From the NCBI GenBank assembly GCA_030596025.1, contig JAUVKW010000001.1, positions 1,603 through 65,602 on the forward strand: a DNA stretch of 64,000 bases. Direction: 5' to 3'. Made by a program: the position numbers and the translations under genes. The number at the start of each line of letters is the position of its first letter. The stretch's first letter is position 1. Of the stretch, positions 725 to 61,183 are shown in pieces. This stretch comes from Bacteroidota bacterium (GTDB lineage Bacteria > Bacteroidota > Bacteroidia > Bacteroidales > VadinHA17). The notes under the pieces are model-generated. The model saw nothing but the letters and a program-made list of their open reading frames with translations, ran no database searches and was not told the DNA's origin.

Positions 725-3106
725 ATGAAAGCATTCGTGAAGATTAAATCGTTCTTATTATCTAATAATAGCTCAATTCAAAATGACCTTAAGGACTATG
801 AGAAGATTTTAATTGATGTCAATAATCATCATTCACAATTAATAAAAAAGACAGATAATGAGTTACAAAAACTATCCTGGAGCCTTATTAAAATAGTCCA
901 AAATGAAAATAAAATTAATCTGGATGATTTATTAGCTTCAGCTTTTGCTCTTGTTAAAGAGGTTTGCATTAGGCAATTGAATATAACTCCTTTTGATGTG
1001 CAAATTTTAGGAGCAATTGGACTTCAAAAAGGGAATCTAATTGAAATGCAAACTGGAGAGGGAAAAACAATAACTGCCGTTTTCTCTGCCTACCTTAATG
1101 CTTTGACTAAAAAAGGTGTCCACATTTTAACTTTTAATGATTATCTCGCAAAAAGAGATGCTACCTGGATGTCACCCATATTTGAGTTTTTGGGATTATC
1201 TGTAGGATTCATATCAGCTGAAATGAATAAATCTGAAAAGAAGAAATTATATAAATGTGATATTACTTATGCAACCGCCAAAGAAGTAGGGTTTGATTAT
1301 TTAAGATCTGAAGTTGCATATGACAAAAAGGAGCTGGTATTGCGACCATTTCATTATGCGATTGTTGATGAAGCTGATGCGATACTGATTGATGAAGCTA
1401 GAAACCCTCTGGTTTTAGCAGGAGATATTATCAAAACTGATTTAGACTTTTATAATATTGCCAGGTTTATATCCACATTGGACTCTAAAATTGACTTTCT
1501 TTCTGACGAGTATTCCAGAAATATATTTTTGACTGAAGAAGGAGTTCTCAAGGCGGAAAAGGAGTTTAATGTTGCAAATCTACTGACTGATGTAAACCTT
1601 GAATTAAACTCTGCTATAAATCTGGCACTGCAAGCAAAATGGCTTTTAAAAAAAGACGTTGACTACATTATTAAAAATAAAGAAATAAAGCTCATAGATG
1701 AGTTTACTGGCAGAATTGTTGAGGACAGGAAATGGCGTAATGGCCTGCAAACTTCAGTTGAAGCAAAAGAGAATCTGGAAATTAATAAGGAAGGAACTAT
1801 ACTTAACTCAATAACATTACCTAATTTACTTCAGCAATACCCCAAAAAGGCCGCTATGACAGCAACAGCTATACAATCATCTGAAGAATTTGAATATTTC
1901 TATGGATTAAAGACTGTTGTAATTCAACCGAACAAGCCTAGTAAACGAATTGACTTTCGAGATGTAATATTTGAATCAAAGGAAGAAAAGAATAAAGCCA
2001 TTGTAAACGAAGTATGTGAGATTCATAAAACCGGGCAACCCATTCTTGTTGGAACACTCACTGTAAAAGAATCTGAAGTTCTGGCAAACTATATTCGTGA
2101 TCAGGGTATATGGTGTGAAATTCTCAATGCAAAGAATGATGAATATGAATCCAAAATAATCTCTAAAGCAGGAATGTTAAATGCAGTAACAATTTCAACT
2201 AACATGGCTGGTAGAGGAACAGACATAATACTTGGAGGACCAGGTAAACAAGACATAGATCAAATTATCAAACTAGGAGGACTTTATGTTATTGGAACTA
2301 ATAGACATGAAAGTTCAAGAGTTGATTGGCAGTTAAGGGGGAGATCTGGCAGACAGGGAGATGTGGGCATGTCAAGGTTCTTTGTCAGCCTGAAGGATGA
2401 CCTGATGGTTAAATATAATATCGTTGATTCATTTCCAAAAAAGTACAAAAACATAATTAAAAAGAAAGTAAAAGAAAAAATAAAAAGAGAATTGATTGAC
2501 CATATTCAACGTGTTATTGAAGGTCAAATGTTTGATTTAAGAAGATCCTTATACAATTATTCAGAACTAGTCGAAAAACAGAAAGTCATTGTAAAAGATG
2601 AAAGACTTAGAATATTAACAAATGGAATTGAGATTACTAAAGATTATCTTCCAATGATGATAAAGAATATTAAGTTGAGGGATCGTTACAAAATACAAGA
2701 ACTGATATTATTTCAGTACGATTTCTATTGGTCAAGACACCTGGACTATTTATCAGAATTGAGAGAAGGTATTCATTTGCTTAGAATTGGAGGGCAGAAT
2801 CCATTAAGGGAATTTCAAAAAAATGTAGATGCAAGTTTTAAGACCTTACTTGGGAACATTGACTTTGAGACGAAGAAAAAAATAAAATGCCTGATTGAAA
2901 ATCCCACACTTGAACTTTCAGACCTTGGTGTCACTAAACCATCATCAACATGGACATATATTGTAAATGATTTTCCATTTGGTAATCAATTAGGATATAT
3001 GCTTACTGATAGCTCGAATATTGGTTTTCAAGTAGATCTCTTATCATTGATAATTCTTGCCATATTTAAGGTCTTTAAGAAGAAGATTAAGAAAGAAATA
3101 TATTGA
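725..3106 (+). CDS. secA: SecA-family preprotein translocase ATPase, short divergent paralogue (SecA2-like)
   Basis: 793-aa ORF with SecA motor motifs: Walker A MQTGEGKT, DEAD-like IVDEADAILIDEARNPL, TNMAGRGTDI, NRHESSRVDWQLRGRSGRQGDVG. The usual GMTGTA is AAMTATA. There is no C-terminal Cys/His zinc motif; the protein ends in a hydrophobic-lysine tail VDLLSLIILAIFKVFKKKIKK. It is roughly 300 aa shorter than the Bacteroidota SecA I recall. Confidence 0.8.
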   Translation: MKAFVKIKSFLLSNNSSIQNDLKDYEKILIDVNNHHSQLIKKTDNELQKLSWSLIKIVQNENKINLDDLLASAFALVKEVCIRQLNITPFDVQILGAIGLQKGNLIEMQTGEGKTITAVFSAYLNALTKKGVHILTFNDYLAKRDATWMSPIFEFLGLSVGFISAEMNKSEKKKLYKCDITYATAKEVGFDYLRSEVAYDKKELVLRPFHYAIVDEADAILIDEARNPLVLAGDIIKTDLDFYNIARFISTLDSKIDFLSDEYSRNIFLTEEGVLKAEKEFNVANLLTDVNLELNSAINLALQAKWLLKKDVDYIIKNKEIKLIDEFTGRIVEDRKWRNGLQTSVEAKENLEINKEGTILNSITLPNLLQQYPKKAAMTATAIQSSEEFEYFYGLKTVVIQPNKPSKRIDFRDVIFESKEEKNKAIVNEVCEIHKTGQPILVGTLTVKESEVLANYIRDQGIWCEILNAKNDEYESKIISKAGMLNAVTISTNMAGRGTDIILGGPGKQDIDQIIKLGGLYVIGTNRHESSRVDWQLRGRSGRQGDVGMSRFFVSLKDDLMVKYNIVDSFPKKYKNIIKKKVKEKIKRELIDHIQRVIEGQMFDLRRSLYNYSELVEKQKVIVKDERLRILTNGIEITKDYLPMMIKNIKLRDRYKIQELILFQYDFYWSRHLDYLSELREGIHLLRIGGQNPLREFQKNVDASFKTLLGNIDFETKKKIKCLIENPTLELSDLGVTKPSSTWTYIVNDFPFGNQLGYMLTDSSNIGFQVDLLSLIILAIFKVFKKKIKKEIY

Positions 3107-3194
3107 GTTAGAATTAATTCGCAAGTGGACAATGGAATGAATTTCCCGAAAAATACTTATTAATTATTTAACTTGATAAGTATCAATTACTTAA

Positions 3195-6100
3195 TTAATC
3201 TATTTTATCAGCCTCCAACCTCAAAAACAAAGGCAAATAAACCACTACAGCGATAAATGAAAATAACAGGCCTCCCATCGCACCCACAGCAAAAGCAAAC
3301 CAAAATACTTCGTTCTGCCCGGCCCATACAAAAGGAATTAGTCCTATTATGGTTGAAATAACTGTTAAAAAAACCGGTACTATCTTGTGATTGTATGCTT
3401 TTAAATAAAGTTTTAAGTTCTTCCTGGTGTTTCTCTCACGGCAAAAATGATTATAATCGTTGATGATATACAAGCCTGCATTTACTACAATACCAGAAAG
3501 CAAAATAAACGAGGCAAAACCTCCCTGGTCGAAATTAAAATCAAACAGATAAAAGGTGAGAAAAACACCTATAAATGAAATGGGTATCATACCAACTATG
3601 GCCAGTGGCTGTAATAATGACTCTAGTAAAATGCTGCAAATAAAATATATGATAAGAATTATTAGCAGTAAAAGGTAATACTGTTTCTTATCTTTACTAT
3701 CCCACCAGGAACCCCAGCCCCGTTTACTTGCCTTGTAACCCAAAGGAAGCAGTGCATTCATTTCATCAATATGCTTTTCCATTACGATTGCACTTAACTT
3801 GCCGGGGCCGATAAAATCATAAGCAACATCAATTCTGTATTGTTGATTGTACTTATATATGTCACTTCCGGTTTTTTGCTTATTAATTTCAGCTAAATAT
3901 CCTTGTTTGTACAGTTTGTTCTGAATACTGGCCGGCCTGTTTTTCAAATCCCATACATTAAAAGTTTCAGCCCGGTCAGATACCAGTGTTACCGGGTTTA
4001 ACTCTCCCTTAACATACACCGGTTTGAGATTTGCCCTGTAAACCCTGTCTCTCAGTGAATTATAAAAATCAATAAGTGTTATTTCCTGCAAACCGAACTG
4101 TTTGCGGTCAAAACCAATAAAGAACTCATGCAATGAGGCAATACGCCACCAGTTACCGGGCCCGGTAATATCCACTTCATGAATTCTTGGATTTTCAAGC
4201 AGTTTTTTTTTCAGAACCCCGGCATAAGCTATCAACTGGTCGTAATTATATCCATCGAATATGATGTGACTGTTTTTGTAGCCTGTATTAATAGCGTTAC
4301 TAAACCCTCTGCCCACGCCATAAATACTCCAGTCAAGCCCGCCAAGGTTAATTGCCTTTGAGGTAAGTTCTCCTTTCAGGAAATAGGGAAAGTACCCCTT
4401 CTCAAATTCAGGTTTAAAGTTTATACTTATAGATGAATTACGATAGCTGGTAATACTGGTTTGAAACAGGTCAACTTCATTATAGCTGCTTATATGATTT
4501 TCCATTTTCTTAACAGCCTCGTTTAACTGGTGTATAGTTGATCCCTCTGGCATGGTACCTCGTACAAACAAGGTAGTTTTCTGCGGACTTGAATAGAATG
4601 AGCTTTCAAACACATGCTCGGAAAAAAGTCGTAAGGTACCTCCGAATATTTTTTCGGTAAGCGATCGGGCATTTTGCTGGTACCAATTGCTTCCAATAGA
4701 TTTATTATAGAGCTGTGACAAGTAATTCTCATTTTCAATTGTTTCAGGAAGCCAGTGTACCGGTATGCCAAAACCCAAAATAAAAATCAGATAATACGCC
4801 CATTTAAACCGTTTGCTAAAAAGAATTGATCGCTCATAAAACCCGGAAATTCGCACAACCCTTCTTTTCCGTTTTAAGAAAGCGATCTTTCTTCCAGCCA
4901 CCAGGCTTATTTTATCCATTAGTGCCGGAATAAAAAATAATGCTATAAGTAATGAAACTGAAAGGTTGACAATAATCACCTCTGCAAAATCAATAAGGTT
5001 TATTCTCTGACTTTCTTCCAGAAAAAACAACATGCTTAACGCCCCTATTGTGGTGAGGGTTGCAGCAAGAATAGCCAGAAACACTTTTTTATTCCGGTGG
5101 TGGCGAATGTGGTCTATCATTACAATGCTATTGTCAATGATAATCCCAAATGAAACAGTGATGCCAGCAAGAGAATAAAGGTGAATTTCTATTTTGAACA
5201 AATAGTAAAATATACAGGCAATAACAAGGTTGGCAACTAAACTCACAGAGATGAGCAATAAATAACGAAACTGCCGACTGATCAATAACACAAAAAGCAG
5301 CAAAATAAGCATCGAAAAGAGTGTTCGTAAGGCAATTTTCTTTATTTCTTTTTCGATAAATTCAGTTGAATCATAAGAAAGCAAAACAGAATAGCCACCC
5401 GGCAGGTTTTGACTGATATCTGCCATTTTTTCTTTAACATCACGAGCCAACTTGATGTTGTTTATCCCTTCTTCAGGATATAGCACCAGGTTTATTGTAT
5501 TTAATCCGTTAATCCGGTAATATGCATGAGGTGGTTGTTCTTTATACCTGATAGTAGCTATATCAGAAAGATATATAATGCGGCCACCTGATTTTTTCAC
5601 CGGTATTTTATTCCATGATTCATTCTCAGCAATGTAGGTTTGTAGTACAATGCTTATTTTTTCAGTAAAATCATGCCCTGGAGTTTTTACGGAACCCATA
5701 CCGATGAGTTCCTTTTGGAAATGGGTATTGATGGCTGAAACAATTTCCTGTGGCTTAATGTTCAATATGTGAATTTGATCAACATTAAATTTAACTTCCC
5801 ATTCATATGGATTAGCGCCGTATATTTTCACTTCATTTAAACCAGGAATAGGCGATAATAATGGTGAGATATTATTTTCAGCATATTTTTGGATATAGTA
5901 GGGACTGGCACTCGCATTTAGATTATAGCTAAGTATTGGTCGTACATTCTGCCCCCTTGTTCCAAGGGTAATTTCCGGATATGAAAGCTGTTTCGGTAAG
6001 TTGGGATAAGTCCTGCGAATAATAGTAGCAATCTCAAACCTCACAGCATCGAGGTTCAGGTTTTTTTTAAAAGTCAGGTTAATTTTGCCACGGCCCCTGT

Positions 6101-6359
6101 ACGAAACTGAATTTACGTCTTTTATGCCTTTAACAGAACTAAAAAGTCCTTCCAGTTTCGAGGTAACTTCCTGTTCAATAACCCTTGCCGAGGCATCGTG
6201 CCAACTATAAGTTACCTCAATAGAAGGTAAAGCCCTTGATGGTTCAAGCTGAACATTCATAAGGGGGATAACACTTATGCCGATTAACATCAGCGCAACA
6301 AAAACCACAATCACCGAAAACGATGAAAACCTGCTTTTATCTGCGTCCTCTGCTTTCAA
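3195..6359 (-). CDS. RND (AcrB-type) efflux transporter permease subunit
   Basis: 1054-aa ORF with an N-terminal TM, two large soluble loops and two multi-TM bundles. TM4-type motif FGIIIDNSIVMIDHI. C-terminal bundle GLIPFVWAGQNEVFWFAFAVGAMGGLLFS. Confidence 0.85.
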   Translation of the reverse strand: MKAEDADKSRFSSFSVIVVFVALMLIGISVIPLMNVQLEPSRALPSIEVTYSWHDASARVIEQEVTSKLEGLFSSVKGIKDVNSVSYRGRGKINLTFKKNLNLDAVRFEIATIIRRTYPNLPKQLSYPEITLGTRGQNVRPILSYNLNASASPYYIQKYAENNISPLLSPIPGLNEVKIYGANPYEWEVKFNVDQIHILNIKPQEIVSAINTHFQKELIGMGSVKTPGHDFTEKISIVLQTYIAENESWNKIPVKKSGGRIIYLSDIATIRYKEQPPHAYYRINGLNTINLVLYPEEGINNIKLARDVKEKMADISQNLPGGYSVLLSYDSTEFIEKEIKKIALRTLFSMLILLLFVLLISRQFRYLLLISVSLVANLVIACIFYYLFKIEIHLYSLAGITVSFGIIIDNSIVMIDHIRHHRNKKVFLAILAATLTTIGALSMLFFLEESQRINLIDFAEVIIVNLSVSLLIALFFIPALMDKISLVAGRKIAFLKRKRRVVRISGFYERSILFSKRFKWAYYLIFILGFGIPVHWLPETIENENYLSQLYNKSIGSNWYQQNARSLTEKIFGGTLRLFSEHVFESSFYSSPQKTTLFVRGTMPEGSTIHQLNEAVKKMENHISSYNEVDLFQTSITSYRNSSISINFKPEFEKGYFPYFLKGELTSKAINLGGLDWSIYGVGRGFSNAINTGYKNSHIIFDGYNYDQLIAYAGVLKKKLLENPRIHEVDITGPGNWWRIASLHEFFIGFDRKQFGLQEITLIDFYNSLRDRVYRANLKPVYVKGELNPVTLVSDRAETFNVWDLKNRPASIQNKLYKQGYLAEINKQKTGSDIYKYNQQYRIDVAYDFIGPGKLSAIVMEKHIDEMNALLPLGYKASKRGWGSWWDSKDKKQYYLLLLIILIIYFICSILLESLLQPLAIVGMIPISFIGVFLTFYLFDFNFDQGGFASFILLSGIVVNAGLYIINDYNHFCRERNTRKNLKLYLKAYNHKIVPVFLTVISTIIGLIPFVWAGQNEVFWFAFAVGAMGGLLFSFIAVVVYLPLFLRLEADKID

Positions 6360-6479
6360 TTTATTTTTATGTTTCTTGAGAATCCCTTATTATTCATTCA
6401 CTCATTTATTTATCCTCTCCTACATTTCATGCCGGCAGGAGTATTTGTCTTATGTATGCTTTCGCCTTAAGCCCTGCTA

Positions 6480-7829: not shown

Positions 7830-10800
7830 TTACTTTTTCAAGTAATAGTAAAATAAGGGGATGAAATACAAACTTACCATTGTACCAACAATCATACCTC
7901 CAATAACTGCCAATGCCAGTGGTTTCTGCAGATCGGCGCCAAGTCCGGTAATAAACAGAAATGGCAAGAGAGCAAGAATAGTGGTTAAACTGGTCATTAT
8001 TATTGGTTTAAACCTTCGTTGGCCGCCTACAACCAATGCTCTCATAAGAGAATAACCCTGGTTACGCAAACGATTAATGGTGTCGATTTTTAAAATTGAA
8101 TCATTAATAATGATACCGCTCATTACAATGATACCAATAAGGGACATTAAGTTTATGCCTGCTCCAAACAGCTTTAATAAAAGAAATACTCCGAAAACGT
8201 CAACAGGCACCTCTATTAGAACAATAAGAGGTAAAGAAAGTGATTCAAACTGTGAAGCCAGGATAAAATAAAGAAGCAAAAGAGAAATGCCAAGAATAAC
8301 CGCAAGCTGCTTTAAAAGTTTTTCACTTGTAAAGATGCTTCCACTAAAACCTGCCTCAAAATGCCGGTCTTCATTTAAAGTATTACGTATGCCTGTAATC
8401 ACTTTATCAGCATCGCTATTGTTTACCTGTATTGGCAAAGGGTAATATTCACCTTCAGGCCCGGCCACAATAATTTTTAAATCGTAGTTTTTTTCTACAC
8501 TAATAAGGCTGCGTAAGGGAATATTATCTCCATTGCTATTCATCACCATAGTTCTTGAAATAATATCATTTATCAATTTGGGCTTCTCACCCAAAACTAC
8601 CGGAATAAAATACTGGCTTCTTGTAATCAGCAATATTTCATTCTCACTCAAAGCACTTTTTATTTTTCGGTGCAATGCTTCAAAAGACACATCATAGGTC
8701 ATTAATTTCAGTGGATCTGCTTTCAATAAAAGATTTTCCTGCCAGGCTACCTGCTGTAATTGACTATAACTTATTTCTTTTCGCATTTTATCAATAGTCG
8801 TCTTCAGAAATATGTTATAATCAGGGCCAAAGTCTTCTGTTGAGCGCAAACGGGCAACCAGGGGCGGTTCATTATCTGAAAATATCAGGTTAAAAACATT
8901 TCCCGCCTCCTTAATATTTATTATTGCAATAGGATATTTACTATTTATGAATTGAGTAGCATCGTTAACAATTGCCTGTATTTCATCAGGAAATTCGGCT
9001 TTAACATAAACCAATGCTTCTGAAGCCGTTTCATCCGAGCTATAGTCAAGAAGAAACTGCTGTTCGCCAATCATACATGTAGATTGAACAGGCTTAACTT
9101 TTATATTTGCTAATAATTCCTGTATCCTTCTGTTATTTTCATCAACATGAATTCTCTCGTTCCATTCAATCCCTATCATTATTTCACTTCGGGAGAGTGG
9201 AGGGAAGCTGTCTTTTGGCAGTTTGAAATACAACAAAACAACACCCATTAGCATAAGAAAAAACAGTATCCATGCGTAGCCCTGATTTTTCATAATTAGC
9301 CGGAATCCCTTTTCGTATATTGCTTCATAATTCAATGTATTTATTCTGGAAAGAAGATTCTTTTTATTTGTTTCTAATTGTTTGTTGTAGAACAATTTAT
9401 AATAAGTGGGCAAAAGAGTTATTGACACAAGGAGTGAAACAATCAGTCCAATAGCAATAGCCATTGCCTGATCATAAAATAATGCACCGCTTATACCCTG
9501 CACAAATATCAAGGGTATAAAAACGGCGCATGTTGTAAGCACCGCACTTAACAAAGGCCTGAATACCTCATTTGTTCCTGACACACATGCCTGAATAAGA
9601 TGGCTTCCCCGTTCACGGTATTGAGTAATATTGTCAATTACTATTATCGAATTATCAATCATCATTCCAACACCCAGTATCAGACCTGATAATGAAATAA
9701 TATTTATCGAAATATCTGCCAGGTAAAATATAAGCAGAGATATAACAATTGAGGCGGGTATGGTAATTCCTACCAGAAAAGGAGCCCTGAAATCTTTTAA
9801 GAAAAAGAACATGATCAGGAATGCTAAAGATGCTCCAAACAAGAGGCTTTTACCAAGATTTGAGATGGTATAATCAAGCAAAAGGGTTTGATCTCTTGTT
9901 ATTTTAAATTCAATATGCGGATAATCTTCAATCAGATGGTCAATGAGTTGGTACAATTTATCTTTTAGCTCGCTCATTTGTGCATCAGACTGTTTAATAA
10001 CAGCCATTGTGATAGCTTCTTTCCCGTCGGATGTCACCATCCCCGTTCGCTTTTGAACATGTTCAATAACCCGGGCAATGCTTTTGAATTGAATAAGCCT
10101 GTCACCTGCTTTAATGTATATATTTTCAATATCGTGTTTGTTTTTCAGAGTTGAGGCAAATCTGATATTGTATTGGTATTGCCCGTCCCGAATGAGAAGA
10201 TTCCCCAGATTAATATTGTTCTTACGTATGGTTTGCTCAATGGTGGCCAAATTAATTCCCAGTGATTCCGCTTTTTTCATATCGGGTATGATCAGTAATT
10301 CGGGATAAACCTGTCCGCTGATATCTACCATTGCAACCTCGGGCAATTGTTCAATACGCTTACTTATAACCTGACCGGCAAATCTGCTTAATTCTATAAA
10401 CTTTTGAGAAACCGGGAAGATATTCTTTGATGTTTCCGGTTGTTGGTTTATGCTTTCTTGTCCATCGCTTAATGATTGTTCCCGTCCCTGTGCTCTGTGC
10501 CCTGTGCTCTGTGCCCTGTGCTCTTTCAATGTCAGGTTTAGATAAAATACCGGTATATCGGATGCACTGGCTTTAATAACCTCTGGCCGGTTTAATTTGC
10601 GTGGTAACCTGTTCATTGCCCTGTCGATTTTTTCATTTACTTCGATAAAGGCAAAATCAACATCAGTGCCATAGTCAAAATCAAGATGGATAAGGGCATT
10701 TCCATCACGCGTTTCACTTTTAATATCAGATAAATGTGAAACCTGCATCAGTTGTCTTCGTAAAGGTTTTACCACCGTGTTTTCCAATTCCCTTGCTGAA

Positions 10801-10955
10801 GTGTTTGATTCGCTAAAGTGAACGGTAATTTTCGGAATATCAATATCGGGCATTAAGGATACCGGTATCTGGAATGACGCAGCTATACCCAAAACCAATA
10901 TGGCAATAAAGATCATGGTGACGGCTATGGGTCTATTTATTAAAAACCTTACCAT
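7830..10955 (-). CDS. RND (AcrB-type) efflux transporter permease subunit
   Basis: 1041-aa ORF. N-terminus MVRFLINRPIAVTMIFIAILVLG is typical of AcrB-family pumps. TM4 motif GVGMMIDNSIIVIDNI. 12-TM, two-loop layout. Contains a low-complexity insert EHRAQSTGHRAQGREQS. Confidence 0.9.
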   Translation of the reverse strand: MVRFLINRPIAVTMIFIAILVLGIAASFQIPVSLMPDIDIPKITVHFSESNTSARELENTVVKPLRRQLMQVSHLSDIKSETRDGNALIHLDFDYGTDVDFAFIEVNEKIDRAMNRLPRKLNRPEVIKASASDIPVFYLNLTLKEHRAQSTGHRAQGREQSLSDGQESINQQPETSKNIFPVSQKFIELSRFAGQVISKRIEQLPEVAMVDISGQVYPELLIIPDMKKAESLGINLATIEQTIRKNNINLGNLLIRDGQYQYNIRFASTLKNKHDIENIYIKAGDRLIQFKSIARVIEHVQKRTGMVTSDGKEAITMAVIKQSDAQMSELKDKLYQLIDHLIEDYPHIEFKITRDQTLLLDYTISNLGKSLLFGASLAFLIMFFFLKDFRAPFLVGITIPASIVISLLIFYLADISINIISLSGLILGVGMMIDNSIIVIDNITQYRERGSHLIQACVSGTNEVFRPLLSAVLTTCAVFIPLIFVQGISGALFYDQAMAIAIGLIVSLLVSITLLPTYYKLFYNKQLETNKKNLLSRINTLNYEAIYEKGFRLIMKNQGYAWILFFLMLMGVVLLYFKLPKDSFPPLSRSEIMIGIEWNERIHVDENNRRIQELLANIKVKPVQSTCMIGEQQFLLDYSSDETASEALVYVKAEFPDEIQAIVNDATQFINSKYPIAIINIKEAGNVFNLIFSDNEPPLVARLRSTEDFGPDYNIFLKTTIDKMRKEISYSQLQQVAWQENLLLKADPLKLMTYDVSFEALHRKIKSALSENEILLITRSQYFIPVVLGEKPKLINDIISRTMVMNSNGDNIPLRSLISVEKNYDLKIIVAGPEGEYYPLPIQVNNSDADKVITGIRNTLNEDRHFEAGFSGSIFTSEKLLKQLAVILGISLLLLYFILASQFESLSLPLIVLIEVPVDVFGVFLLLKLFGAGINLMSLIGIIVMSGIIINDSILKIDTINRLRNQGYSLMRALVVGGQRRFKPIIMTSLTTILALLPFLFITGLGADLQKPLALAVIGGMIVGTMVSLYFIPLFYYYLKK
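10486..10524 (-). repeat. about 2.8 copies of a 14-nt tandem repeat (plus strand CCCTGTGCTCTGTG) inside the RND coding sequence
   Basis: Read directly. On the coding strand it reads GAGCACAGGGCACAGAGCACAGGGCACAGAGCACAGGG and encodes ..EHRAQSTGHRAQG.. within the first periplasmic loop region. Confidence 0.85.
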
Positions 10956-10983: not shown

Positions 10984-11672
10984 CGTTTCTATGGTTTCTG
11001 TTGTTCCTGTAGTTTCTATGGTTTCTATGGTTTCTATGGTTTGAATTTAGTTCCCTTGAATTCTGATTTAGAAAGATACTGCATCATGTTGTTTGTTTTT
11101 CTACCCAAAACAATTGTTTTTTCTGAAAATTCATCAAATTCATTTTGAGATATATAATTTCGGTCGAATGCACGATAGAGCTGCGATCTGGTTTCTCCAC
11201 ATGACCCTTTTGCAATCGATAGAAAGTTTCGAAATTCTTTGTTCCCTCCGCGTTCGAATCCCTCTGCAATATTATCCATGGTTGATCCGCTTGAGGCTCT
11301 GATTTGATCTCTCAGACGAAAATCTTTTGAAAACTTTTCCTTTAAAGTAAGCTCGAAAACATCAATACTTAACTGCCTGGCAAACTGCCATATCTCCAAA
11401 TCCTCAAAACGTTTAACAGTTGCCATTATTTTTAAAAATTGATCTATGATCTTAAAAACATAAAAAAATATACACTAGGAACAACAGAAACAAGTTCCTA
11501 TTGTTTATGTTGTTCCTCTTGTTTGAATATAATACCTGGAAGGCTATCATATTTCCAATTTCTCAATTAGTTTTACCATTACCATTTGTTCCCAAAAGAA
11601 TTGTATTATTATAAAAAATCATTGAACATTAAACAACAGGAACTATAGGAACTAAATAAACCAAAGGAACAT
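10984..11672. repeat. inverted-repeat (rRNA-IVS-like) element enclosing the four-helix-bundle gene
   Basis: Left arm 10984-11040 is made of GTTTCTATGG/GTTGTTCCT words. Right arms at 11475-11525 and 11631-11672 carry the reverse-complement words. A perfect 15-bp inverted repeat, GTTTCTGTTGTTCCT (10994-11008) / AGGAACAACAGAAAC (11477-11491), brackets the ORF. Confidence 0.55.
11034..11426 (-). CDS. four-helix-bundle protein (23S rRNA intervening-sequence protein family)
   Basis: 130-aa ORF. FEDLEIWQFARQL...DQIRASSGSTMDNIAEGFERGGNKEFRNFLSIAKGSCGETRSQL matches the family pattern I recall (PF05635 type). Confidence 0.85.
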   Translation of the reverse strand: MATVKRFEDLEIWQFARQLSIDVFELTLKEKFSKDFRLRDQIRASSGSTMDNIAEGFERGGNKEFRNFLSIAKGSCGETRSQLYRAFDRNYISQNEFDEFSEKTIVLGRKTNNMMQYLSKSEFKGTKFKP

Positions 11673-12749
11673 TTATTTAATAATTACCTCCGACTCGTGC
11701 GCCAAATTCAGGTTACCTGAAATAATTACTGTATCTCCGGGAGCAAGTGTGCCGCCTTTATCAGGATGTGCCTGCACGGTATATGAATTGCTGTTTTCGA
11801 ATTCGGTTTGCACGTAAGTCCAGAAGGCTTGCCCGTTTTTGTATACAAACAATACTTCCTGGTTCTGGCGTAATACTACGGCTGACTTTGGTACAACCAG
11901 GCGGTCAGGCACCCTGGTTTCAAGCAACACTTCTACATTCATGCCTTCCATAAGCATACCTGTATTCTTAATAACTGCTTTAACTCTTATCATACCATTT
12001 TCTTCAACCACAGGATTAATTTCACAAACCTTTCCATAAACTATTTCATCATTTATAAAAGGAATAATTTTAACCTCTTTACGCAATTCAATTTCTTTTA
12101 ATTCAGTTTCAAGTACTGAAAACTCAACCTCAAATGCCGATTCATCAATAAGTGTGCAGAACTCTTCTCCGGGACTAACCACATCGTGTACTTTGTGTTT
12201 TAAATTAGCTATAACTCCCGTGAACGGGGCTTTCAAAATGGTGGAGTTGTAGTTAAACTTTGCCGTTTCAAGGCTGTTCATGGCATCTAATAGCCCCGAG
12301 CGTATTTTTGCGCTTTTCACAATGTTTTCAGGAGGTTGCTTATTTCCTGAATTATAACCCATTAGAACAATAACATCCTTGTATTCAACTTCGGCTTTTT
12401 GTATTTGAAACTCAGCTTTTTCGAGTTCCTGCTCCTGATTAAACCTGAAAAGGCGTGCTATAACCTGGCCCTTATATACTTTATCGCCATTTTTATAGGC
12501 CAGATATTCCAGTTCCTCACTAATACGAAACCGGAGGATGCTTTTTCTCAGGGCAATAAGCTTTCCATTGCTTACCAGTTCCTTACTGAAATCGGTTTCC
12601 TTAAGTACTATTACATCAACGGGGTTGCGTTCAGGACTATGGTTCAGTTTGCCGGTATCCTGATCCTCCCCGCCTTGATTTGTTGAGCATTGGCTAAAAA
12701 CAAGTATAAGTAAAAATATCAGTATGTTTCTCATATTCAATTTGGTCAA
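11673..12749 (-). CDS. efflux RND transporter periplasmic adaptor (membrane fusion protein)
   Basis: 358-aa ORF with lipoprotein-type signal LILVFSQCS. HlyD/AcrA-like layout with a coiled-coil region and LKAPFTGVIANL lipoyl-type motif. Lies upstream of the RND permease on the same strand. Confidence 0.8.
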   Translation of the reverse strand: MTKLNMRNILIFLLILVFSQCSTNQGGEDQDTGKLNHSPERNPVDVIVLKETDFSKELVSNGKLIALRKSILRFRISEELEYLAYKNGDKVYKGQVIARLFRFNQEQELEKAEFQIQKAEVEYKDVIVLMGYNSGNKQPPENIVKSAKIRSGLLDAMNSLETAKFNYNSTILKAPFTGVIANLKHKVHDVVSPGEEFCTLIDESAFEVEFSVLETELKEIELRKEVKIIPFINDEIVYGKVCEINPVVEENGMIRVKAVIKNTGMLMEGMNVEVLLETRVPDRLVVPKSAVVLRQNQEVLFVYKNGQAFWTYVQTEFENSNSYTVQAHPDKGGTLAPGDTVIISGNLNLAHESEVIIK

Positions 12750-16699: not shown

Positions 16700-16915
16700 T
16701 TACTCTTGAATTGGTCCATCAGGGCAGCTAGTTCTACCTGTATGATCCCATTGTAAACAATTACAAGCAACACATTGTCCTGGCCATGATGTAGTAGACC
16801 TATAACCCCATGAACACCAAGCAGCTTCCGCTGGTTTTGGCTGAAGAGTTAATAAACTAATTGCAATTATTACAACAAGAGTTGCTATGCCGATAAATAT
16901 TTTCCTTTTTTCCAT
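16700..16915 (-). CDS. small secreted Cys/Trp-rich peptide (71 aa precursor)
   Basis: Signal peptide with a predicted SPase I site, PKPAEA|AW. The roughly 40-aa mature part AWCSWGYRSTTSWPGQCVACNCLQWDHTGRTSCPDGPIQE has 5 Cys and 4 Trp. A paralogue lies directly downstream. Confidence 0.65.
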   Translation of the reverse strand: MEKRKIFIGIATLVVIIAISLLTLQPKPAEAAWCSWGYRSTTSWPGQCVACNCLQWDHTGRTSCPDGPIQE

Positions 16916-16985: not shown

Positions 16986-17388
16986 GCTCCCGAAAGGGGA
17001 GCTACCAGAACTGGAGTCTGAATACAAATGGTTGAAGGTTATGGTGTGTTTTCCCTTTCACTATTATTAATTGTTTCTAAAGTTTCTATTGTTCCTCTGG
17101 TTCCTGTTGTTTCTATGGTTTCTTTGATTTCTGCTGTTTTCTCATTATTTCCCGGCACATCATGTTTTTAGTATATGAAATTTTATCAAATCACAGACAA
17201 AAGGAACTACAGAAACCATAGAAACAACATGAACTTTTTTTTATTCATTTAATCATTATTTCTTATGGTTTATATTACTTAATCCGGTGAGAATTGGATT
17301 TATTCCCAAAAAAGATATTTATTTTTCAACATTTTGATAGTTTAGATAGACTCTAAATATAAGGTAGGGATGATCAGTAAGATATGGA
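16986..17388 (-). repeat. conserved non-coding element, copy A (upstream module + word hairpin + about 110-nt peptide-proximal module)
   Basis: Two modules, 16986-17095 and 17275-17388, match 19530-19640 and 19725-19838 with 5 and 7 mismatches by eye. The central hairpin arms are TGTTGTTTCTATGGTTTCT (17105-17123) and AGAAACCATAGAAACAACA (17211-17229). The element fills the whole gap between the upstream gene stop (17411) and the peptide start (16915). Confidence 0.8.
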
Positions 17389-19235: not shown

Positions 19236-19472
19236 TTACAATGGTTCTGGTGCCCATTCTCCATTATCCTGATAATCAATTGAACCATCTTCGTTATACC
19301 ATGTACAAACTTCAGTAGATATATTTGCACATATTCTTCCAGCACCAGACTGTGCCAGGGCTTTATTATTATCTATAAATGATTCTTTTTCAGGAGAAAA
19401 GTTCATATTCATCCCAATACCTAGCATGAATAAAAAACCAAGGAAAATTAATCTGACAATATTCTTTTTCAT
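19236..19472 (-). CDS. small secreted peptide, NVEALA-like (78 aa precursor)
   Basis: N-terminal hydrophobic segment LIFLGFLFMLGIGM, then ..FIDNNKALAQSG.., which resembles the NVEALA motif of the small Bacteroidales protein family of 71-86 aa (from memory). The tail GAGRICANISTEVCTWYNEDGSIDYQDNGEWAPEPL has 2 Cys. Confidence 0.6.
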   Translation of the reverse strand: MKKNIVRLIFLGFLFMLGIGMNMNFSPEKESFIDNNKALAQSGAGRICANISTEVCTWYNEDGSIDYQDNGEWAPEPL

Positions 19473-19529: not shown

Positions 19530-19838
19530 GCCCCGGAAAGGGGAGCTACCAGAACTGGAGTCTGAATACGAATGGTTGAAGGTTATGGTGTGTTTTCCCT
19601 TTCACTATTAATAAATGTTTCTAAAGTTTCTATTGTTCCTATGGTTCCTACAAAAGGAACTACAGGAACAATAGGAACTCTCCTTTTAACATTCTATCAT
19701 TTGCTCATTCCATCATTGTCTCCATTACTTAATCCGGTGAGAATTGGATTTATTCCCAAAAATGAGATTTATTTTTCAACATTTTGATAGTTTAGATAGA
19801 TCCTAAATATAAGGTGGGGGTAATCAGTAAGATATGGA
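19530..19838 (-). repeat. conserved non-coding element, copy B
   Basis: Same two modules as copy A. The central hairpin is reduced to CTATTGTTCCTATGGTTCCT (19630-19649) / AGGAACTACAGGAACAATAG (19655-19674): 20 positions with 1 mismatch, 1 G-U pair and a 5-nt loop. The track ORF 19572..19787 is a translation of this repeat. Confidence 0.8.
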
Positions 19839-21477: not shown

Positions 21478-21675
21478 AATTCCTCTGAATTTTTTATGGC
21501 TGTTTTAGTACTCATAAGAAAATATACCGCTATTCAATGCAATTTTAACTATGAATATAAGCAAAAACAGATTAGAAGATTATTTAACTTAAAAACTAAC
21601 TTAGGGCTTACGGAAAGGGAAAGTATCAAAATGTGCCGTGCAGTTACAATATCTTGACAGAAAATAATAATTGTT

Positions 21676-21836
21676 TGAATGAATGGGTGAATGGGTGAAT
21701 GAGTAAATGCGTGAATCATACCAATTTATTATTTTAACATTCTCACATTTTAGCATTCTATCATTTCAACATTCCATCATTTTAACATTCTGTCATTTTA
21801 GCATTTTAGCATTTTAGCATTCCTTCATTCCATACC
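21676..21836. repeat. word-repeat inverted block (TGAATG words, then CATTC/CATTTTAGC words)
   Basis: 21676-21718 reads TGAATGAATGGGTGAATGGGTGAATGAGTAAATGCGTGAATCA. 21735-21836 holds degenerate CATTCT/CATTTTAGC units, including 3 tandem GCATTTTAG copies. The two blocks are roughly reverse-complementary in word content. Confidence 0.7.
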
Positions 21837-21993
21837 TTTTGAGACAGCCCCTGAATTAATTTCGCCTTACAAGGTAATGAACTGCGGGTCGGGTTTTTTG
21901 TTCGATTATTAATTCTTACTTTTAAAACTTGATAGGGTTAACCTGGATCAAATCCAGTTTAATGCAAACATTAATCATCAAAAAATCCAAATT

Positions 21994-60771: not shown

Positions 60772-61038
60772 CTTTGCTCCAAATAAATTTTAAAGCTTCG
60801 AATATAATTGGAGTCAAAAGTAGAACTTTCTAACAAATTATGAAAAGTTGATTGATGAATTTCAAAGAAATGCAATAATTCTCTACGGCCTGCCGGGTGC
60901 CCTCTGCTGGATTTTTGAGTTTTGGAATTTTCTGTTTTGCCCTTACCTAATCTTTCTCTCTTTCGCCTTGTCGCTCCTTCGCCCCCTGCGCCTCTTCTCT
61001 TTCCCTCTTTTTCCTCGTAGCTCTTCCCTCCTTGCCAA

Positions 61039-61097
61039 CTGCCGACTGCCGACTGCTTACTGCTTACTGCTTACTGCTTACTGCTTACTGCTTACTG
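61039..61097. repeat. heptamer tandem array: 2 x CTGCCGA + 6 x CTGCTTA
   Basis: Read directly. Embedded in a pyrimidine-rich (plus strand) low-complexity element, 60940-61183, immediately 3' of aspS. The track ORFs 60848..61168 and 61032..61289 are translations of it. Confidence 0.9.
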
Positions 61098-61183
61098 GGA
61101 CTTGGTTCGAGACTGTTCAAGAAAGTTCGGGACTGCATCCTCTTTCTCCCAGTCACCTCTTCACTTAGTCTCTCTTTCACTCC

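Follow-up and report, generated by a model that had tools for sequence, protein, structure and literature searches.

A four-helix-bundle gene between inverted word arrays in an RND pump operon of a Bacteroidota bacterium and its likeness to the intervening sequences of 23S rRNA

The intervening sequences (IVSs) of 23S rRNA that bear an open reading frame (ORF), known from Leptospira, Coxiella burnetii, Azospirillum and others, encode proteins of the PF05635 ('S23p') family. Terminal inverted repeats make a stem whose loop contains the ORF, the arms of this stem consist of tandem short words, and the element relies on the transcript of its host. In Coxiella, the IVS has a 28-bp terminal stem with tandem GACAGAT heptamers before the ORF and is excised by RNase III (PMC4990558). 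Here, we analyzed a 64,000-nucleotide stretch of a Bacteroidota genome (GCA_030596025.1, contig JAUVKW010000001.1, positions 1,603–65,602; hereafter the window), in which a gene for a 130-residue PF05635 protein lies in the same layout of word-built inverted arms within a different host transcript, namely the protein-coding operon of a resistance-nodulation-division (RND) pump rather than helix 25 or 45 of 23S rRNA. A preliminary description, made from the letters of this stretch alone, had placed the gene inside an inverted-repeat element in the RND operon; we confirmed this placement and saw the same design again at 82 homologous loci as well as in a genuine IVS of 23S rRNA. We lean towards reading the interval 10985–11671 as an IVS-type, promoter-less PF05635/TIGR02436 cassette, closed into a stem by word arrays and co-transcribed with its host operon. 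The IVS-like half of the preliminary interpretation is thereby favored, while its other half, an autonomous transposon with MITEs (inverted-repeat transposable elements of miniature size) as derivatives, found no support. In the literature, we found no paper that links PF05635 genes to inverted word arms in operons (coverage was incomplete and an earlier description is possible), and the architecture, an IVS-type element outside rRNA, is apparently undescribed.

Other known elements resemble the cassette in part. Correia elements and Neisseria miniature insertion sequences (NEMIS) of Neisseria, as well as the enterobacterial repetitive intergenic consensus (ERIC) elements, are likewise repeated, form hairpins and occupy transcribed intergenic regions of operons, and RNase III cleavage within mRNAs has been reported for Correia elements. 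They have, however, a conserved consensus, defined terminal repeats and target duplications and carry no ORF, whereas elements of the window type have element-specific tandem-word arms, unrelated loops and, as their typical cargo, a protein gene. Repetitive extragenic palindromes (REPs and their paired form, REPINs) associated with a REP-associated tyrosine transposase (RAYT) share with the cassette a gene flanked by inverted, hairpin-forming repeat copies and gene-less hairpins dispersed intergenically in the genome. RAYT, in contrast, is an IS200/IS605-type tyrosine transposase, with one REP family per RAYT genome-wide, while the cassette encodes a 130-aa helical bundle and occurs in many copies per genome, each with its own words, with few ORF-less copies.

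The accessory protein Avd of diversity-generating retroelements (DGRs), described as an RNA- and reverse-transcriptase-binding cofactor, has a homologous four-helix-bundle fold and family. The resemblance of PF05635 to Avd, and their homology, are on record (PMC10053308). Unlike avd, the cassette gene has RND pump, signal peptidase and beta-propeller genes as neighbors: the genes scanned from 3.2 to 21.5 kb encode pump components, peptidase S26, DUF1573, TolB-like, redoxin or DUF5128 proteins or have no Pfam match, with no reverse transcriptase among them, and no template/variable repeat pair was found near the gene, the sole long direct repeat nearby being a duplicated peptide leader. Both the adjacent reverse transcriptase and the template/variable repeat of a DGR are thus missing beside ORF 11034–11426. 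Finally, the STRR (short, tandemly repeated and repetitive) sequences and TAACTGA repeats are short tandem words, mostly of 7 nt, in intergenic DNA of the same phyla. A title by Vioque from 1997 reportedly places an STRR inside an RNase P RNA gene. Such heptanucleotide repeats have been described in cyanobacteria, Beggiatoaceae and some Bacteroidetes, intergenically and beside start codons, but as direct repeats, unlinked to PF05635 genes or to paired inverted arrays (PMC4679880).

The product of ORF 11034–11426 matched Pfam PF05635 ('23S rRNA-intervening sequence protein') with E=8.6e-33 over profile positions 1–105 of 106 and NCBIfam TIGR02436 ('four helix bundle protein') with E=5.3e-31 (107 bits; cut-off 24). 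These matches span the full profile length and are the only family matches of the protein, with no transposase of the RAYT kind among them. The family motif R..S...NIAEG (PMC3936711) is present as RASSGSTMDNIAEGF, and the sole solved sequence relative is the pentameric family member Xcc0516 (PDB 2GSC; phmmer E=4e-7), a similarity at the sequence level. Against three orthologous loci (L190, L206 and L168), the ratio of nonsynonymous to synonymous substitution (dN/dS) was 0.03–0.09, which points to a functional protein under strong purifying selection, unlike the Coxiella IVS ORF, which is decaying and probably untranslated. The window contains no second PF05635-family gene over its 64 kb. The gene lies between those of an HlyD-type adaptor (11673–12749) and an AcrB-type permease (7830–10955), all three on the minus strand, with spacers of 246 nt upstream and 78 nt downstream; with the RND adaptor and permease as neighbors, it lies outside helix 25 or 45. 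An Rfam scan of the window gave zero matches, hence no rRNA and no known RNA family. Between 10850 and 11800, no intrinsic terminator was predicted and promoter-like sites were no commoner than in shuffled sequence; the stems are made of A/T-rich words and lack the T tract of a terminator or attenuator.

GTTYCTNNN words, 9 nt long, fill both spacers of the gene together with their reverse complements. In the whole window, GTTYCTRTDGTTYCT matched 16 times, against 0.00 expected, and the matches were confined to four places (10985–11035, 11477–11671, 17073–17225 and 19617–19678). The arms noted in the preliminary description are real, including a perfect 15-bp inverted repeat (10994–11008/11477–11491, 15 of 15 positions) that forms part of longer arms, but the interval 10985–11671 holds four arrays, not two, which follow one another in the transcript as A, a 108-nt loop, B, C, a 50-nt leader, the gene and D (Table 1). 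Arm A begins 1 nt past the adaptor stop codon, whereas arm D covers the stop codon of the four-helix-bundle gene and ends 29 nt short of the permease start codon. When a 741-nt sense RNA was folded, A:B and C:D were paired in both the minimum free energy (MFE) and centroid structures, predicting an empty hairpin (A:B) directly upstream of the gene-carrying hairpin (C:D). The terminal complementarity of an ORF-bearing IVS is thus found here, as the 15/15 repeat and as the C:D stem of both folds. The upstream part folded alone preferred a local B:C hairpin, so the arrays permit alternative pairings. The loop between A and B is kept in the closest orthologous operon, L203 (alignment score 77 vs 17 for shuffles).

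Table 1. Coordinates of the cassette components and of the two ORF-less hairpins in the window.
Feature	Position	Strand	Evidence or remark
Arm D, six reverse-complement words (AAACCATAG x3, AAACTACAG, GAACAACAG, AAACCATAG AAAC)	10985–11043	-	Repeat listing, pattern search
Four-helix-bundle protein gene, 130 aa, PF05635/TIGR02436	11034–11426	-	Profile matches, dN/dS
A/T-rich leader, arm C to start codon, 50 nt	11427–11476	-	No sigma-70-like promoter or terminator predicted
Arm C, forward words GTTTCTGTTGTTCCT	11477–11491	-	5' half of gene-enclosing stem, 15/15 complementary
Arm B, reverse-complement words	11493–11522	-	Can pair with A (86% over 22 nt) and, alternatively, with C nearby
Loop of empty upstream hairpin, 108 nt	11523–11630	-	No ORF; no homology to four-helix-bundle gene
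Arm A, forward 9-nt words GTTCCTTTG GTTTATTTA GTTCCTATA GTTCCTGTT (transcript orientation)	11631–11671	-	Pairs with arm B in MFE fold
ORF-less hairpin, same word family, leader of small peptide gene 16700–16915	17073–17229	-	Fold z=-4.8
Minimal ORF-less hairpin, same word family, paralogous leader of peptide gene 19236–19472	19617–19679	-	Fold z=-7.4

Scanning of one genome per species yielded 80 loci for relatives of 53–67% identity, nearly all from Bacteroidota, and arm statistics were drawn from 82 homologous Bacteroidota loci. By eye, short words repeated in tandem lie upstream of the gene at almost every locus, and downstream lie the reverse complements of these words (GTTTCGG/CCGAAAC, AGTTCAA/TTGAACT and GTTTCAG/CTGAAAC, for example), with a dominant period of 7 nt and periods of 8, 9 or 10 nt in some loci. 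Complementarity between the upstream and downstream arms averaged a score of 33 vs 15 in shuffles and lay at least 15 above the control in 51 of 82 loci, and the arm duplex energy had a median z of -3.9. At 51 loci, the arm's own partner ranked within the top 5 of 82 candidate arms (median rank 3), and different elements within one genome carry different words; the arms therefore co-evolve inside each element, with no genome-wide consensus. The arms also have a fixed polarity with respect to the gene: the upstream one is GTT-rich in 60 loci vs 14 and the downstream one AAC-rich in 72 vs 6. In the window, the ORF-less hairpins follow this polarity with respect to the genes downstream of them. 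Arrays that satisfied a strict periodicity filter were nine times denser within 250 nt of family genes than elsewhere in the same loci (0.55 vs 0.06 per kb). A metagenome scan for three consecutive words of the window type returned 120 loci, 69 of them with all matches inside long ORFs (coding tripeptide repeats), and only two relevant ones, L168 and L190, so that the pattern is unspecific outside this lineage. As a separate observation, the Ginsengibacter metagenome-assembled genome (MAG) L042 has four family genes inside 6.4 kb, each with its own words, and there a G+C mini-palindrome, TCCGCCGCGGCGGA / TTCGCCGCGGCGAA, recurs among the word arrays (2900–3500 and 5780–6380).

The design extends to other phyla and into rRNA itself. 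A tblastn search of plasmid records gave 22 matches; inverted word arms were present in all 10 copies inspected, eight of them cyanobacterial, one in the suf locus of Riemerella and one in Azospirillum lipoferum. The cyanobacterial copies (L211–L214, L216 and L218–L220) have purine-rich tandem words upstream and the complements downstream, such as CAGGAGT/GACTCCT in Nostoc punctiforme and GGGAACA/CTGTTCC in N. edaphicum. The Azospirillum copy (L217; A. lipoferum 4B plasmid AZO_p2, 13789–15330) is an unannotated four-helix-bundle ORF inside a large-subunit rRNA gene (Rfam RF02541, 909 bits) and hence a genuine 23S IVS, whose arms are the tandem-word inverted repeats CAGAGGACGGATGACAGAGGACGGAGGACAGAA and TCCGTCCTCTGTCTTCTGTCATCCGTCTTCTG. 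Since the Azospirillum and Coxiella IVSs share word-arm stems, the window element has the design of an ORF-bearing IVS, in mRNA rather than rRNA. The cassette class thus spans phyla, with arms that are element-specific and mutually complementary, and the ORF-bearing 23S rRNA IVSs are the same design in another host transcript.

Orthologous RND operons, traced by their adaptor genes, contained the cassette in eight cases (the window, L190, L168, L206, L208, L210, L010 and L020), a truncated remnant in one and no cassette in two. The words at this junction are 9-mers in the window, L190, L168, L206, Prolixibacter (L010) and a Draconibacterium MAG (L020), and heptamers in L208 and Gaoshiqia (L210), where both arms have changed together (GTTTGAA/ATCAAAC and GTTACAG/CCTGTAA); array length among the orthologues ranges from 5 to 12 words. 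L204 has a truncated, stop-containing gene remnant (IAKASGGETISQLY followed by a stop). Its close relative L205, whose flanking protein fragments are 94–96% identical, lacks the gene, and its spacer of 52 nt contains an unrelated G+C hairpin; the 125-nt spacer of Puteibacter (L209) lacks the gene as well. Compared with some orthologues, as these three loci show, the cassette is an insertion, which bears out the preliminary description, and some lineages are losing it. Distant orthologues with the gene at this place and no arms would have told against that description; the other genera that carry the gene there have it with repeat arms, which speaks in its favor. Since the site is occupied in at least four genera, the insertion is old. 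The permease ORF of this operon has, at 10485–10526, a repeat of 14-nt period encoding the low-complexity linker KEHRAQSTGHRAQG, an indel relative to L190 and L206 that is present in L204 and L205.

Empty and filled forms of one site also occur in suf operons. At the sufC–sufD junction of Flavobacterium, a 79–113-nt empty hairpin of GTTTAAR words lies in L019, L034, L052 and L064, and F. zhoui (L062) has a full four-helix-bundle gene between arms of the same kind; other operon junctions in homologous loci also hold empty word hairpins. Decay and loss of the cargo are documented at orthologous sites, and this Flavobacterium junction supports the size series proposed in the preliminary description as a real evolutionary relationship, whether by gain or by loss. 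For the window the evidence is weaker: the loops of its ORF-less hairpins resemble neither the gene nor each other (score 15 vs 16 for shuffles in the latter comparison). Both ORF-less hairpins of the window were found as described: at 17.1 kb, a perfect 19-bp stem (17105–17123/17211–17229) with an 87-nt loop lies inside 38-nt arms that are 82% complementary, and at 19.65 kb, 25-nt arms with 88% complementarity enclose a loop of 5 nt. Together with the empty hairpin at 11493–11671, they are arms of the same kind without cargo. The 17.1- and 19.65-kb leaders are near-identical over their shared segment, with 76% mean column identity across the whole alignment, and the former differs by extra words and the 87-nt loop. 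Because the hairpins are carried by paralogous leaders, they represent one duplicated site, not two independent ones. We also considered the empty loops as decayed gene copies and rejected this for the window, given a best profile E of about 1 and a 32-nt similarity that was unsupported. Downstream of the two word hairpins, at 16990–17070 and 19530–19612, lies a conserved leader segment of ~110 nt that includes the G+C stem GCTCCCCTTTCGGGAGC; the two small peptide genes that follow it belong to a cluster with beta-propeller, redoxin and signal-peptidase genes, and the segment has no Rfam match.

Across the homologous loci, both neighbors could be called at 70 and shared the orientation of the gene at 63 of these; the downstream neighbor was co-oriented in 75 of 77. 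Spacers around family genes measure about 30–100 nt, typically just fitting the arms. The 74 downstream neighbors match 70 Pfam families in all, several per protein, so the cassette is not bound to one pathway; the commonest are SufB/D (18 loci), SufC-type ABC ATPases (15) and AcrB-type permeases (3), and the suf operon is a hotspot. In the iron/Fur transcriptome of Riemerella, SufA (RAYM_06457), a four-helix-bundle protein (RAYM_06462) and SufB (RAYM_06467), which have consecutive tags, respond together (PMC5609570), and the joint iron response of this suf-embedded homologue fits co-transcription. The family had earlier been reported as 'associated' with cas operons (PMC3936711). Picosynechococcus has a family copy between cas10 and cmr3 and Anabaena has one between cas6 and cas4, both with word arms, and the association looks like the same habit of sitting between operon genes.

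Genes for 'four helix bundle protein' are numerous in each genome of Bacteroidota and cyanobacteria. The family now gains a defining genomic grammar: its genes are co-directional within operons and enclosed by matched inverted word arrays. This grammar accounts for the repeated 'association' of family genes with unrelated systems such as cas operons, and it links the family to the 23S rRNA IVSs, whose origin has been an open question for decades, suggesting that stem-closed cassettes inside host transcripts form a general class, with rRNA IVSs as one of its habitats. It also offers a possible explanation for part of the tandem heptamer repeats in these phyla, as cyanobacterial family copies may account for part of the STRR heptamers.

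On the favored reading, the cassette would act in three steps. Given the co-orientation, the tiny spacers, the lack of a predicted promoter or terminator and the published co-regulation of a suf-embedded homologue, we infer that it is transcribed within the host transcript. The arms would pair in the RNA and close the cassette as a long stem-loop, bringing the upstream stop codon and the downstream start codon together again; the insertion would be structurally tolerated because this pairing restores the host junction, as the predicted folds and the co-evolution of the arms suggest. An RNase III-type cleavage of the stem would free the four-helix-bundle RNA and separate the flanking cistrons. 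Such processing is probable here by analogy with the rRNA IVSs, for which excision by RNase III has been demonstrated, and on the same analogy the cassette could set the relative expression of adaptor and permease, and the ORF-less hairpins could affect that of the peptide genes.

Several results weigh against this reading. Over the whole 741 nt, predicted folding exceeds that of shuffles by a modest margin only (z=-1.8). The strict periodicity filter leaves an array at just 34 of 93 genes, and stricter complementarity thresholds are passed by only about 60% of loci. Pairing is not unique either, since hairpins are nested, or forward words lie on both sides, at several loci. Sense-strand G:U mismatches (57) are not in excess of A:C mismatches (74), and sense and antisense duplex energies are equal (-35.9 vs -36.5 kcal/mol); showing no bias, these wobble and strand-energy comparisons neither support nor exclude an RNA stem. 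A profile of 81 family members, run against the three ORF-less elements in every frame, detected no trace of the gene (best E about 1). In the relatives L221 and L222, ORF-less hairpins that match are missing from the 10 kb around the cassette.

Roles of the arms at the DNA level, in cassette gain, loss or exchange, or as protein-binding sites, are live rivals to an RNA-only reading. In the first of these, which we regard as unlikely, the arms would be terminal inverted repeats or recombination substrates of a mobile cassette, and gene plus arms, or arms alone, would move or be exchanged between junction hairpins by homologous recombination within the arms or with the help of a putative trans-acting enzyme; hairpins that lack an ORF would then represent MITE-like derivatives or vacant attachment sites. 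The occupation of very many unrelated operons speaks for such movement, as do the presence, remnant and absence of the cassette at orthologous sites, the variation between 9-mer and heptamer cassettes among lineages at one RND junction and the recurrence of one word family at more than one site in the window. So does the Flavobacterium locus L045, where the gene at the sufB–sufC junction is 55% identical to that of congeners amid flanking proteins about 90% identical, which suggests non-orthologous replacement of the cassette. Against this, the cassette encodes no transposase, integrase or nuclease, no target-site duplication can be defined, its strong co-orientation with the host operon is unlike random transposition, and occupation of the RND site in several genera is consistent with vertical descent. 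The autonomous element with MITE-like derivatives of the preliminary description lacks support on these grounds: neither transposase nor nuclease families are matched, and what the putative derivatives share is a word family in the arms, while their loops are unrelated and the 17.1- and 19.65-kb copies arose by segmental duplication of a leader.

Sequence divergence bears on the same question. Between the window and L190 or L206, nucleotide identity is about 0.67 in the host genes and about 0.90 in the ORF (window 11034–11426, L190 4623–5015, L206 3776–4168), with the step at the arms, which counts for a mobile cassette, and synonymous divergence (pS) is 0.41–0.44 in the ORF vs 0.80–0.86, a saturated value, in the flanking genes. 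This island of identity could equally reflect cassette exchange later than the divergence of the operons or constrained synonymous sites. The closer pair L190/L206 gave a similar ratio of ORF to flank synonymous divergence. In the suf loci, the pS of the gene tracks that of the flanks, and a comparison of equal-length fragments gave no tree incongruence between cassette and host, both of which speak against mobility. Recent horizontal exchange of the cassette was considered and, in view of the L190/L206 ratio, the near-equal suf pS and the lack of incongruence, is not claimed.

The second rival, to which we assign a small probability, treats the word arrays as iterated protein-binding sites, the most economical candidate ligand being the encoded four-helix-bundle oligomer, which would autoregulate the cassette and act in trans on hairpins with the same words, such as those in the two peptide-gene leaders. 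Homologous Avd proteins are described as nucleic-acid-binding, tandem words of constant period resemble iterons, and the words are element-specific. The ORF-less hairpins, moreover, share their words with the nearby cassette, both in the window and in Flavobacterium suf operons, and the four-helix-bundle protein is more conserved than the proteins of the host operon (83–93% vs 69–88% over comparable fragments). Simple iterons, however, need no inverted, mutually complementary arms, and word periods vary from 7 to 10 nt among close relatives of the protein. Relatives with the cassette in the same operon also lack matching ORF-less hairpins within 10 kb. A regulon in which the cassette protein acts on same-word hairpins of the cluster was accordingly tried and rejected, as relatives with 10-kb flanks have no such hairpins.

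That the arms are functionless, slippage-prone simple repeats in permissive spacers around an ordinary host gene of operons is very improbable: tandem heptamer arrays do occur without a family gene in intergenic DNA of these phyla (PMC4679880), array length varies freely among orthologues and no wobble signature of RNA-stem selection was seen, but slippage alone cannot explain reverse-complementary, co-varying arrays on either side of a gene, their polarity fixed relative to transcription, their ninefold enrichment beside one gene family or the same design in three phyla and inside rRNA. Least probable of the readings that we considered, and put forward as speculation, is an RNA-mediated mobile class, in which RNase III-excised cassette RNA would be copied back into hairpin tips of other transcribed DNA with the protein as an RNA-binding cofactor of a host reverse transcriptase; hairpins at operon junctions, helices of rRNA and perhaps RNase P RNA would serve as landing sites, the protein would be the free-living ancestor of the DGR Avd/template-RNA module, and the cyanobacterial STRR sequences would be footprints of such elements.

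Two further sites with arrays were seen elsewhere in the window. The array at 61031–61105 consists of tandem heptamers, (CTGCCGA)2(CTGCTTA)7, and the sequence nearby showed no inverted partner. At 21676–21833, in the divergent intergenic region 21478–21993, a second pair of word arrays of another family consists of GGTGAATG-type 8-mers followed by CATTYTNN words, including CATTTTAG three times, and the two arrays are partly complementary (GAATG/CATTC).

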